Shown: piece after piece, positions 20,200 through 23,862 of the stretch
How the letters are laid out: each line of letters opens with the position of its first letter
Numbering within the stretch: position 1 is the first letter of the stretch
Virus record (IMG/VR): IMGVR_UViG_3300044657_001121
Span: 1-26,955 of that record
DNA from: a virus
Taxonomy: Duplodnaviria; Caudoviricetes
Reading direction: 5' to 3' (one strand)
DNA length: 26,955 bases
Position numbers and translations under genes: made by a program
The notes under the pieces: model-generated
What the model saw: the letters and a program-made list of their open reading frames with translations, nothing else
What the model was told of the DNA's origin: nothing
The model's database searches: none

Positions 20200-20363
20200 A
20201 CAGTGTGTTTTGGAGAGTGGGCCGGGCTTGATACCGACTCGGTGAAGGTGGTTCACGCAACGCCATGGCCATGTATCGGTTACCTCGCAGCTCCGGGCGA
20301 TTCGTTGCACGCTACCCACACAGCGCGTGTCCATCCACGCCGCCACTCCACAAAACACACTGT
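20200..20363 (-). ncRNA. tRNA-elbow-like structured ncRNA
   Basis: 13-bp perfect closing stem plus GAGTGG/CCACTC; D-arm-like GCGUG-GAUGGA-CACGC; T-arm-like GUCGG-UAUCAAGC-CCGGC. Confidence 0.7.
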
Positions 20364-20375
20364 TTCACTACCCTG

Positions 20376-20777
20376 CTACTCAAAAGCCAGACCGTGATAG
20401 CCTGCCAAATAAATGGCCGACTGCATTAAGCACATCGTTTCGATTCGGTCAGGTTTGTTGTCCCAATGCCGCAGCGCTTCTGCCAACGTGAACCAGCGGC
20501 AACCCGCGCCGATGTAGGCGACACCTTTTACGTTTGCGATGCACTTGCGATAACCGTCTGCAAAGCCAAGATCTAGCGCCCAAGATGCGTTAGCGCCGAT
20601 GCTTGCCCCTTCGCCGATGCTTGCCCATGCGCCGATGCTTGCCCCTTCGCCGATGCTTGCCCCTTCGCCGATTCTTGCCCATGCGCCTTCCGTAATCCAA
20701 CTCAACCCGGCAGGAGCAATAGACCAACCGTAAGAGTTTTTAGGCCAAAGTGCCGCAATATTTCCTGCTTCGATCAT
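20376..20777 (-). CDS. Hexapeptide-repeat (left-handed beta-helix-like) protein
   Basis: ASIGEG repeats; C-terminal IGAGCRWFT..EA..HW domain; AGGAG SD before ATG 20777. Confidence 0.75.
   Translation of the reverse strand: MIEAGNIAALWPKNSYGWSIAPAGLSWITEGAWARIGEGASIGEGASIGAWASIGEGASIGANASWALDLGFADGYRKCIANVKGVAYIGAGCRWFTLAEALRHWDNKPDRIETMCLMQSAIYLAGYHGLAFE
20594..20687. repeat. 18-bp tandem repeat x5 (CGCCGATGCTTGCCCCTT / ..CATG variants)
   Basis: Read directly; encodes the hexapeptide repeats. Confidence 0.95.
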
Positions 20778-20954: not shown

Positions 20955-20995
20955 ATGCTAGGGGATAACATTCCGCGTGTCAACACATTTCGTGC
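20955..20995 (-). promoter_or_regulatory. Leftward early sigma70 promoter (PL-like) with an 18-bp box
   Basis: Minus strand TTGACA(20983-20978)-17 bp-TAGCAT(20960-20955). Confidence 0.8.
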
Positions 20996-21040
20996 AAATA
21001 ACTCATTTATTTTGCTGTCGATATGGAAAACGCACAGGAT

Positions 21041-21069
21041 TTGACGTGCGAACAACAATCGTATACATT
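21041..21069 (+). promoter_or_regulatory. Sigma70 promoter driving the RNA cassette
   Basis: TTGACG-17 bp-TACATT; the predicted +1 falls at the base of the first hairpin. Confidence 0.75.
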
Positions 21070-21076
21070 ACGCGAA

Positions 21077-21158
21077 TTGCTGCGGACACAGCGAATAGTG
21101 AAGCCCTCAAGCTCATGCACATTGTGTCCGCAGTGTGCAGCAGCGCGAGGGCTTTTTT
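21077..21158 (+). ncRNA. C4/CI-like antisense RNA with its cognate target hairpin and a terminator tail
   Basis: Hairpin loop CGGACA (21083-88) exactly complements loop TGTCCG (21125-30); outer stem AAGCCCTC/GAGGGCTT with a T-tract. Confidence 0.7.
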
Positions 21159-21177
21159 ATTGCCCGTTCGCTGCGAA

Positions 21178-21580
21178 CTGATGACTAGATTATGGTCTTA
21201 GCTCCTTTGGGGTCATCGGTGTTACAGACGCCTACAAAGCACACAAGGGCGTCGCGGTGGGAGTGGATAGCAGCGACACATTAGAAATGCAAAGAACGAT
21301 ACCAGCGGCTTAAATGCGTCGTGGGGTAAGCCTGAAAAGAATCAGGAATCGGAAACGTAGCAAATGTGCCGTGATAGCTCGCCTAGAGCCGTGTGTGGGG
21401 ATCGATTAAATGGGTCTAAAGTCTAGGCAGGTGCGATGGAACATTATCGATAAGCGCACCCATTCAGAAAGCAACCGGAAACCTCAAATTACGCTGAATG
21501 ATTCCCTCAACCTACAGCTCATTGTGGGTTGGGGGAGTATTGAACCTAACCGCCCCGTTTCCTAAATCCGCTGTCATTGC
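21178..21580 (+). ncRNA. Putative large multi-branched structured RNA
   Basis: At least 7 local stems and 2 nested long-range helices; 17-bp hairpin with 4 G-U pairs; no ORF of 60 aa or more in the track. Confidence 0.6.
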
Positions 21581-21601
21581 TTAACTAGCACGGTAGAACA
21601 A

Positions 21602-21802
21602 ATGGATAGCCAATATCTTTGCAGGAAGTCAAAACCTAAAGTAGCGCATTTATGGAATGGGCGCGATACTGAGTGCAGGCAGCATTCGACGGGTGGGCTA
21701 AACCCGCGTAAATATGTCGTTTGGCGAAAGCTCCCTGAATTGCCAATATGCACAATGTGCGAAGCGGTGTGGCGTCGAAGCCAAGAAAAAAAGACCGCAT
21801 AG
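21602..21802 (+). CDS. 66-aa basic protein with a putative Zn-binding His/Cys/CxxC set
   Basis: AHLW....TEC...ICTMC; ends exactly at the right 18-bp box. Confidence 0.7.
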   Translation: MDSQYLCRKSKPKVAHLWNGRDTECRQHSTGGLNPRKYVVWRKLPELPICTMCEAVWRRSQEKKTA

Positions 21803-21842
21803 CACGAAATGTGTTGACATACGGCGTGTGGCGTGTTCCACT
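21802..21842 (+). promoter_or_regulatory. Rightward early promoter (PR-like) with an 18-bp box
   Basis: TTGACA(21814-19)-17 bp-TCCACT(21837-42) preceded by TGn; ATG 6 nt downstream. Confidence 0.65.
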
Positions 21843-21848
21843 ACGGAT

Positions 21849-22058
21849 ATGAAAAAGAAATCCCCTAAAGACTGTCTAGCGCAAGCCATTAAGGATGCGG
21901 GCGGTGCTGCGGCAATCGCAAAGCAATTTAAGTTCCCGTACACCAGCACGGTCTATAACTGGCAGTCGCGCGAAATCCCCGTCAAATGGGCGGTGAAGCT
22001 GTGCAAGATTAAAGGCGTGACCGTTACCCCTAACCAACTCAGGCCGGACGTATTTTGA
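21849..22058 (+). CDS. Cro-like HTH regulator (YdaS/Cro family)
   Basis: AI..AGG.AAIA...STVYNW...IP..LRPDVF signature; true start at ATG 21849. Confidence 0.88.
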   Translation: MKKKSPKDCLAQAIKDAGGAAAIAKQFKFPYTSTVYNWQSREIPVKWAVKLCKIKGVTVTPNQLRPDVF

Positions 22059-22290: not shown

Positions 22291-22497
22291 ATGAGCACTA
22301 GAAACCAATGCCTGGCGATAGTCGCCGCGTTCAAGAACCGCTGGTTTGACACCGGCATCGCGTTCGACCATTTGCGCGTGCAAAGCATCCATCGCCGATT
22401 GTCAGACCTAGAAAGCATGGGCTACACGGTAGAGCGCAGGAAGCATCCGACGATTAAGCGCGCCAAGACGTACCGCATCACGGGGAAGGCAGCGTAA
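22291..22497 (+). CDS. Small winged-helix protein
   Basis: SIHRRLSDL...GY.V.R.....K.YRI pattern; GGGAG SD. Confidence 0.7.
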   Translation: MSTRNQCLAIVAAFKNRWFDTGIAFDHLRVQSIHRRLSDLESMGYTVERRKHPTIKRAKTYRITGKAA

Positions 22498-22781
22498 TGG
22501 AACACGCCCGCCACCTAATCAACGAAATGCTTCACCGCAAGCGCGAGCGCGCAAACGTTCAGCCAGTCAAGCGACCTGAGCGCTGCAACACGTTTCTAGC
22601 GACTCAGACCGTACTCAAGATGATTCCGCAAGAAGGCGAAATATCCCGCCAAGACATCATCAAGCGAACATCGTTCACGGAATTGGAGATTAAAGCCGCT
22701 GTGAACGCGTTAATGCGATCAGGCCTCATCCATTTCCGGCGCAATGGCGTCAACAGCTTTTATCGACTGGCACCAGTTTGA
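22497..22781 (+). CDS. Putative winged-helix DNA-binding protein
   Basis: ISRQDI...AVNAL.RSGLI...FYRL; TAATG coupling. Confidence 0.65.
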   Translation: MEHARHLINEMLHRKRERANVQPVKRPERCNTFLATQTVLKMIPQEGEISRQDIIKRTSFTELEIKAAVNALMRSGLIHFRRNGVNSFYRLAPV

Positions 22782-23142: not shown

Positions 23143-23862
23143 ATGTACGCAAAAGTTTTCTCTCAGATATTCGACGGGACGCTCTGCACTGTTGGCCCGT
23201 GGGAATCGCTGGTTACGTTTCAGCAGTTGTTGATTTTGGCTGACCAAGAGGGCCACGTTGATATGACAGCAACGGCAATAAGTCGCCGAACGACTATTCC
23301 TATCGAGATCATCGAAAAAGGCATTGCGGCATTGTTGCTGCCAGACCCTGAGTCGCGCACTCCAACTGAGGAAGGACGGCGCATAGTGCCATTGTCTGAG
23401 GGCAGGGCATGGGGATGGCGCATAGTCAACTACAAGCACTATCGACAGCTAAAACGCGAGGAAGATCGCCGCAGTTACCACCGCGAGTACTGGCACACAC
23501 GCAAAGATAAAACTCAACACACTCAACAAACTCAACCGAATCAACCTATAGCAGAAGCAAAGGCAGAAGCAATAAATAAAACGGGGGTTAGGTTTGATGA
23601 ATTCTGGGACAGTTGGCCTAAAAACGAGCGCAAGCAGGATAAGAAGAAATGCCGCGATCGCTGGCAAACTGCAAGGTGCGATGCTCTTGCGGAAAAAATC
23701 CTAGCGGACATCAGCTTGCGCAAGCAGGGCACAAAATGGGCAGACCCTAAGTACATCGAAGCGCCGCTGGTGTACTTGAACAACGAACGCTGGAATGACG
23801 GGTTTTCCCTTATTGCAGCAACAAAGGCGCACAACAGCTATTCCGACAGGGTAGCGTTATGA
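23143..23862 (+). CDS. Phage replication initiation protein
   Basis: W.IVNY..YR; internal iteron-like repeats; C-terminal FDEFW..WPK...K..YI..P..YLN.ERW.D domain; upstream of the helicase. Confidence 0.85.
   Translation: MYAKVFSQIFDGTLCTVGPWESLVTFQQLLILADQEGHVDMTATAISRRTTIPIEIIEKGIAALLLPDPESRTPTEEGRRIVPLSEGRAWGWRIVNYKHYRQLKREEDRRSYHREYWHTRKDKTQHTQQTQPNQPIAEAKAEAINKTGVRFDEFWDSWPKNERKQDKKKCRDRWQTARCDALAEKILADISLRKQGTKWADPKYIEAPLVYLNNERWNDGFSLIAATKAHNSYSDRVAL
23512..23547 (+). repeat. Iteron-like 9-bp repeats x4 (ACTCAACAC consensus), probable ori
   Basis: ACTCAACAC ACTCAACAA ACTCAACCG AATCAACCT followed by an A-rich tract, inside the initiator gene. Confidence 0.65.

Follow-up and report, generated by a model that had tools for sequence, protein, structure and literature searches.

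A Recurrent RNA Cassette of Tailed Phages and Its Possible Role as an RNA-Primed Replication Origin

Genome Context of the Cassette

The window analyzed here, i.e., the whole stretch of DNA of 26,955 nucleotides (record G000 in its entirety), represents a partial tailed-phage genome. Its tail and lysis genes are directed rightward. Bet-like and SSB genes occupy the left arm, which reaches the late genes at about 15240 with no integrase between, and the right arm includes cro, RusA, an O-type initiator, a helicase and NinB. Near-identical DNA is present in estuary, wastewater and freshwater runs. The features discussed below are the following:

20955..20995, − strand: PL, leftward promoter (TTGACA-17-TAGCAT) with two flanking 13-bp operator-like palindromes (20968-80, 20983-95); holds the left 18-bp box
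21041..21069, + strand: the cassette's own sigma70-type promoter, predicted; both hexamers are kept and the spacer is replaced in relatives
21075..21160, + strand: leader, a predicted attenuator composed of a 5' hairpin (loop 21083-88) and a long terminator hairpin, the apical loop of which is complementary to 21083-88
21178..21537, + strand: large non-coding RNA of about 360 nt, predicted to be knotted; two crossing interactions are predicted in it, and its 3' hairpin (21502-37) is C-rich/G-rich
21602..21802, + strand: 66-aa protein, predicted to be zinc-binding, with conserved H16/C25/C50/C53
21802..21842, + strand: PR promoter, TTGACA (21814-19)-17-TCCACT (other alleles have TGTAAT); its two operator-like palindromes are at 21802-14 and 21817-29; holds the right 18-bp box
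21849..22058, + strand: Cro/YdaS-like HTH protein, a likely binder of the four palindromes
23143..23862, + strand: full-length replication initiator of the O type, iteron-like repeats being located at about 23513-23546; the conventional origin of the phage, outside the cassette

The first-pass annotation placed the cassette in the slot of a cI repressor and stated that no HTH/S24 repressor ORF is present there. This description stands: no long leftward ORF was found in 20955-21848, no S24 match occurs anywhere in the record (about 43% complete by CheckV), and no integrase was detected in the window.

The identical inverted 18-bp boxes, described earlier as brackets of the cassette, do exist, but they are not its ends. 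Each box consists of a 13-bp operator-like palindrome together with the TTGACA of the outward-directed PL or PR. Two such palindromes, 15 bp apart, are located at each of the two promoters. The palindrome pattern has eight occurrences in the window, which is about chance overall; four of them are clustered at PL and PR and are probably Cro operators. The −10 element of PR has two alleles among relatives, TCCACT and TGTAAT (window 21836-21848), and the ATG of cro is located 7 nt past this element, so the cro mRNA is likely leaderless. A 16-nt inverted match (15/16) between 21830-21845, in the −10 region of PR, and 22493-22508, at the start of a downstream gene, could be due to chance.

Promoter and Leader

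The inner promoter-like site at 21041-21069 was confirmed by comparison: the TTGAC and TACATT boxes are kept and the spacer is replaced in 4/4 relatives, with 23 of the 53 columns around the spacer varying among four metagenome relatives. The promoter match taken alone is at chance level (3 found versus 3.4 expected).

The kissing-loop/terminator element that the first-pass annotation placed at 21077-158 was also recovered. The leader folds as a 5' hairpin and a terminator (z -5.1), and the loop-loop pair, which is part of an 11-bp complement (21080-90 / 21123-33), covaries. One loop base per leader hairpin co-changes in 3/4 relatives and in contigs of three runs, possibly all from one event. 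Calculated duplex energies are -24.2/-24.9 for matched loop alleles versus -18.8/-20.9 for crossed ones. Once the downstream sequence is included, the terminator fold and the alternative helix are within about 5 kcal/mol of each other. A short same-strand RNA complementary to its own leader, a property of P4 CI and P1 C4, is predicted for the cassette. An opposite-strand promoter of the RNA I type was not found over 21061-21420 by a simple pattern; one weak minus-strand site (21216-21189) is at chance level.

Contigs of run X2 leave the window after the inner promoter (21072) and rejoin it just before the stop codon of the ORF (21796). These ends suggest that the slot holds another cargo in some members of the population, and it is possible that a single allele accounts for both ends. 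Contigs from RNA libraries were considered as evidence of expression and set aside, since their coverage is even over the entire region and they could derive from DNA.

Zinc-Finger Protein and Recurrence of the Cassette

The 66-aa His/Cys protein belongs to a real family of 308 clusters (full HMMER scan, phmmer), in which H16 and C50 never vary and C25 and C53 almost never do. A word-index protein search and a single-protein locus search missed this family, and full phmmer retrieved it; the Atlas result for the protein is weak. Longer relatives are fused to HNH, DUF5710 or PIF1 helicase, and no PHROGs family is common to the members. The structure model is a confident one (pLDDT 94); the fold search yielded a best Z of 2.7 and no Foldseek E below 0.001, an outcome that is not evidence of a new fold. 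The protein could be expected to bind zinc and nucleic acid. Its gene was found at one locus in 185,579 prokaryote genomes versus 87 viral hits, the search patterns having differed between the two sets.

Eighty viral loci with the 66-aa protein were collected, 76 of them with enough upstream DNA. Leader, large RNA and zinc-finger gene recur together, a co-occurrence that the annotation had proposed to test: a long terminator hairpin is located about 240-475 nt upstream in 45 of the 76 loci (6 duplicates included) and at 12 of 292 control positions. A stretch of at least 7 nt that can pair with the inside of the terminator was found in the 5' part of 26 of 37 leaders, versus 10% in cross and shuffle controls; the script missed 4 of 41 leaders, that of the window included, and some of its matches are stem extensions. 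The recurring design comprises a promoter, a kissing-loop terminator, an RNA of 250-450 nt and a zinc-finger or HNH gene. The RNA between leader and gene belongs to one of several classes, including Betaproteobacteria-1 of Rfam. Among candidate loci gathered by other means, seven viral 17-mer matches (L002-L008) and two box matches (L013, L014) were rejected as unrelated, and two of five later matches (L129, L131) as chance.

The neighbor of the 45 leader-bearing loci is terminase in 16 cases, a half initiator (see below) in 10, helicase or primase in 10, and none of these in 9. Helicase or primase also adjoins 15 zinc-finger loci in which no leader was detected. In L035 and L047, the RNA and the zinc-finger gene directly follow primase, and the leader terminator was not detected. 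A cassette-like unit is located on the left arm in L150/L160. Many further phages thus carry the cassette, at positions that are not confined to the cI slot.

Relatives are also found among cultured phages. The HNH family that follows the RNA at some loci (see below) is preceded by a gap of 460-640 nt in Xanthomonas phage Kintu, Vibrio phages 2.095.A and 1.178.O, and Sulfitobacter phage phiGT1. Kintu and both Vibrio phages have the promoter, 5' hairpin and terminator, and the leader of phiGT1 is less clear. The loop-bulge complement was scored in the Vibrio pair and identified by eye in Kintu. The RNAs of these cultured carriers do not match the class I and class V profiles described below. 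In Vibrio 1.178.O, the cassette is located among head genes, with DUF1376 and DnaB elsewhere. In phage Mwe-JY08, the gene of this HNH family has no such gap before it, and a DUF1376 initiator and a LexA-like gene come next.

Large RNA and Its Classes

In the first predicted crossing interaction of the large RNA, helix 21253-58/21388-93 is crossed by 21381-87/21422-28. The second is a predicted loop-loop pairing of about 21401-12 with about 21442-51. The annotation had called this sequence densely paired, which the single sequence does not support (z +0.4 for 21178-21480, z -2.0 for 21178-21548); the claim of structure is based on comparison with relatives and not on single-sequence stability. 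Among close relatives, 0/441 RNA columns and 1/201 ORF columns vary, versus 15/207 in cro.

The Rfam scan suggested in the annotation gave no hit in the window at gathering score, with chance hits only up to E 10, leaving the cassette without a C4/CI-type or any other match. ARAGORN found nothing in the window. No blastn match of the cassette was obtained in phages or plasmids (72,556 plasmids, PLSDB), nor for three other RNA classes in phages and one in plasmids.

Three loci found via the protein have the 3' portion of the RNA in common and define class V (the L050 group); the window matches the profile of these three with E 0.0018. A motif scan yielded 19 loci; the distinct full-length sequences number 14 in all. 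Against the profile of all 14, the window scores E 2e-5, a partly circular value, and the match is limited to the 3' approximately 130 nt. The class-V structure, drawn by hand, has 59 pairs; pairing holds in 99% of cells, and both sides change at 18 of the 59 pairs. None of 500 shuffles reaches the observed value and slid controls give 28-39%, the control taking no account of relatedness. The loop-loop helix is invariant within the 14 and so has no covariation of its own. The window forms 13/13 equivalent class-V helices with different sequence; these were assigned by hand and eye, which makes the result a matter of consistency and not an independent test. The window RNA is a diverged member of the covarying class-V family. 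G-U pairs favor the + strand.

Class I RNAs are shorter, have central pseudoknot words in common with the window, and contain a P3-like helix that covaries. In class I loci L024, L029, L031, L046 and L128, a split inner segment resembles DNA at or past the 3' end of the RNA. This segment varies with the 3' end in some members, individually not above shuffles, and in the window or class V the signal of an inner copy of the RNA 3' end does not exceed that of shuffles. The same slot is occupied by at least six additional RNA classes, grouped by eye (L020/L025, L030/L035, L054/L089, L063/L091, L066/L068, L073/L077, L085/L087), and those scanned have no Rfam match. Betaproteobacteria-1 (RF02932) RNA fills the slot in L015, L018 and L123.

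An RNA or RNA-protein particle that acts in trans in some other role, e.g., counter-defence or exclusion of competing phages, would agree with the compact fold with its crossing helices and invariant loop-loop pairing, and the possible alternative cargo of run X2 suggests an accessory slot. Such a function would leave the half initiators unexplained, and we consider it improbable.

Downstream of class-V RNAs, a zinc finger, an HNH gene or an unrelated small ORF is found. HNH follows the RNA directly at seven class-V loci (six by PHROGs; L102/L111 share the start of the HNH protein). Where a primase adjoins a class-V RNA, its match is confined to the toprim part at the N-terminus of longer profiles. 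The seven HNH loci allow the cassette to be viewed as a selfish mobile unit, in which the RNA partners or scaffolds the HNH nuclease that spreads it and the zinc-finger-only form of the window is non-autonomous. Fusion to this HNH family is seen in the closest N-terminal relative of the 66-aa protein (P0002), cassette positions vary widely, and the low variation of RNA and ORF relative to cro is as after a recent sweep. The class I inner segment, which resembles DNA past the RNA 3' end and co-varies with it in some members, could also be expected of such a unit. Many carriers, however, have no HNH adjoining the RNA, the alignment shows no variable segment resembling a guide, and the inner-copy signal does not exceed shuffles in the window or class V. 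Selfish spread alone would also leave the link to half initiators unexplained; on balance it is unlikely.

Alternatively, leader and large RNA could form a cis-acting gate that times transcription or translation of downstream genes in an IsrK-like or antiterminator-like manner. The unit always heads a co-oriented gene block, and IsrK of Gifsy-1 is described as a terminated leader acting in trans on its own read-through transcript (PMC4825925). The downstream genes, however, are unrelated between loci, cro has its own promoter PR here, and 250-450 nt of several unrelated folds would be far beyond the need of a gate. This function appears rather unlikely.

Lysogeny and Immunity

RNA-based control of immunity or of a carrier state in place of cI was the first idea proposed for the cassette. 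It is in line with the position of the cassette in the cI slot of the window and with leader logic resembling that of P4 seqA/CI/seqC as described in PMC4825925; allele-specific loop pairs could define exclusion groups. Four carriers that are 93-100% complete have neither an S24 repressor nor a tyrosine integrase, plasmid-type carriage being possible. The probable carrier phiGT1 forms clear plaques, has no integrase and was published as lytic (PMC7427195). The cassette is nearly absent from host genomes, is mostly located outside the cI slot and has no C4/CI Rfam match.

An immunity role is unlikely because of the neighbors outside the cI slot, the carriers without S24 repressor and integrase, and the near absence from hosts; to the original idea as a whole we assign very little probability. 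Absence of cI does not require the cassette either, because L164-L168, which have the window's initiator type, show cro adjoining the left arm with no cI and no cassette detected. The probe is weak: over 33 initiator relatives the cI probe retrieved itself alone and Pfam named few of the 64 ORFs. None of the 33 loci with this initiator type has the zinc finger or a class I/V RNA. What remains of the earlier functional proposal is the attenuator-like leader before a large RNA and a small protein, and replication timing, now the leading reading; control of lysis versus lysogeny, or immunity in place of cI, finds no support.

Comparison with Known Systems

ColE1 combines its own promoter, a transcript of about 500 nt, antisense-type loop-loop control and a small protein (PMC5935869). 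The cassette likewise has a predicted promoter, a predicted transcript of about 500 nt as the putative primer, predicted loop-loop control of the antisense type and a small protein downstream. It differs in being located in phages, in having no opposite-strand promoter that could be found, and in apparent control by a same-strand terminator leader; its protein has a His/Cys domain and is not Rom, the fold of which is helical. Similarity to ColE1 RNA II/RNA I was not found, with no blastn match in the 72,556 plasmids of PLSDB and no Rfam match.

P1 C4 is a short same-strand RNA that pairs with its own leader. In P4 seqA/CI/seqC and Gifsy-1 IsrK, such an RNA is reported to govern read-through (PMC4825925), which is the logic proposed for the cassette leader. 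In the cassette, by contrast, the leader is followed by a large RNA and not by an antirepressor or kil ORF, no match to the C4-type Rfam families was obtained, and the carriers checked show no sign of lysogeny.

In L015, L018 and L123, Betaproteobacteria-1 (RF02932) occupies this slot, preceded by a leader of similar kind and followed by the zinc-finger gene. Other cassettes match its covariance model, but the window RNA does not; the Rfam model is of 120 nt only. The ARRPOF, GEBRO and PAGEV motifs (223-349 nt, structured) have been proposed to take part in replication, and ARRPOF is described as needed for Rep-independent plasmid replication (PMC5737381). Unlike the cassette, they are plasmid-associated; Rfam matches to them were obtained neither in the window nor in the 20 + 10 + 5 related loci scanned.

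In many relatives the large RNA adjoins an HNH gene, which resembles the HEARO/OMEGA arrangement. OMEGA systems contain an IscB/IsrB-type nuclease with RuvC and an omega RNA. In the relatives, the HNH protein is small (about 140-205 aa) and often absent, no guide segment is evident, and no RuvC family occurs among the PHROGs hits listed for them. The window cassette has no nuclease, and no HEARO match was found. Group I introns have a P3/P7 pseudoknot followed by P8 and P9, a helix order that the large RNA resembles. It does not interrupt a gene, however, and has no Rfam match, and the P7-equivalent strands and guanosine-binding pair positions differ by eye between the window, class V and class I.

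Possible Replication-Origin Function

The cassette is a real, widespread RNA cassette and most likely a variant of RNA-primed origin. In the form preferred here, it would be a self-contained, attenuator-gated origin of lytic phages, with the large RNA as a ColE1-like primer or as an R-loop RNA, a reading that is taken from context only and to which we assign a probability of about 0.45. Early transcripts would read through the leader into the large RNA. Terminated leader RNA would accumulate and pair with the 5' loop of new transcripts, changing read-through in an allele-specific manner. The folded RNA could remain on the template near the G-rich 3' hairpin and open or prime DNA, and the zinc-finger or HNH protein could assist or spread the unit. 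The window phage would have acquired the cassette recently, as a second origin next to its iteron origin, whereas other lineages have apparently lost the half of the initiator that binds iterons. R-loop origins are known in T4 and T7.

The primer-origin reading is favored because half initiators occur together with the leader. The 80 zinc-finger loci include 10 hits to O-type initiators, all of which are of 101-165 aa, comprise the C-terminal half only and have the leader, with the limit that the profiles were built from C-terminal halves and other full-length families may be missed. The pairing of half initiator and cassette is also found in L123, L128, Kintu and phiGT1. Four leaderless loci seem, by eye, to be followed by longer initiator-like ORFs. 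It is further favored by G006/G007 and Kintu. In G006/G007 (100% complete), the cassette directly precedes the half initiator, and no helicase, primase, polymerase or full initiator was found in the 40/106 ORFs scanned (early and non-structural regions). The annotation of Kintu names none of these either. Mwe-JY08 is the converse case, with HNH, no gap and a DUF1376 initiator. The toprim-only matches of the primases at class-V RNAs, the parallel with the ColE1 layout and the precedent of ARRPOF also speak for an origin.

The same reading is weakened because the window, L150/L160 and Vibrio 1.178.O keep a full initiator in addition to the cassette, because terminase is the commonest neighbor (16/45), and because helicase or primase also adjoins 15 loci in which no leader was detected. 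The half initiator of MW202484 without an adjacent non-coding gap, the lack of a plasmid match for the two RNA classes tried and the negative pattern search for an RNA I-type promoter on the opposite strand also count against it, as do the run X2 contigs, which leave the cassette at both ends, so that part of the population may be without it. GC skew turns at about 21000, where the direction of transcription also turns; two long relatives have no clear switch, and skew is therefore uninformative.

A bolder form of the origin reading is possible but doubtful. According to it, the cassette would be a widespread mobile all-RNA origin module, built on knotted RNAs that can replace one another and are governed by a terminator sensing its own product. 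Each RNA would open the DNA at its 3' end, perhaps aided by a nick from HNH, and many lineages could thereby have dropped the iteron-binding half of the initiator. If so, Betaproteobacteria-1 and several unnamed RNA classes would receive one function, and the window would represent an intermediate stage with both origins.

Many small aquatic phages have no recognizable replication start, and two complete genomes have a half initiator only. This gap would be closed if the cassette is an origin, and ColE1-like priming would extend to lytic phages, with a same-strand leader sensing its own product. Whatever its function, the cassette includes a large covarying RNA family without an Rfam model, and the repeated architecture around it accommodates one Rfam orphan as well. 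No published description of it was found in the full texts searched, which include few subscription papers. A set of 8,495 short IMG/VR motifs is described in PMC10690425, and this set or the supplement of PMC5737381 may hold fragments of these RNA families. Cultured carriers such as phiGT1 make the cassette directly testable.

Other Features of the Early Region

A 21-bp inverted repeat at 20200-20363 of the window surrounds a 122-nt inner part that varies between relatives. It has no Rfam match and looks like a separate structured RNA of the left arm, possibly C4-like. The first protein of the left arm contains hexapeptide repeats (Pfam Hexapep), which are encoded by an 18-bp tandem repeat at 20576-20687. 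In the near-identical relatives L140 (1-760) and L141 (1-1715), an HNH-like insertion or a helicase-like and methylase-like block, as read from the sequence, is located between cro and the initiator; the early region thus appears to be mosaic.
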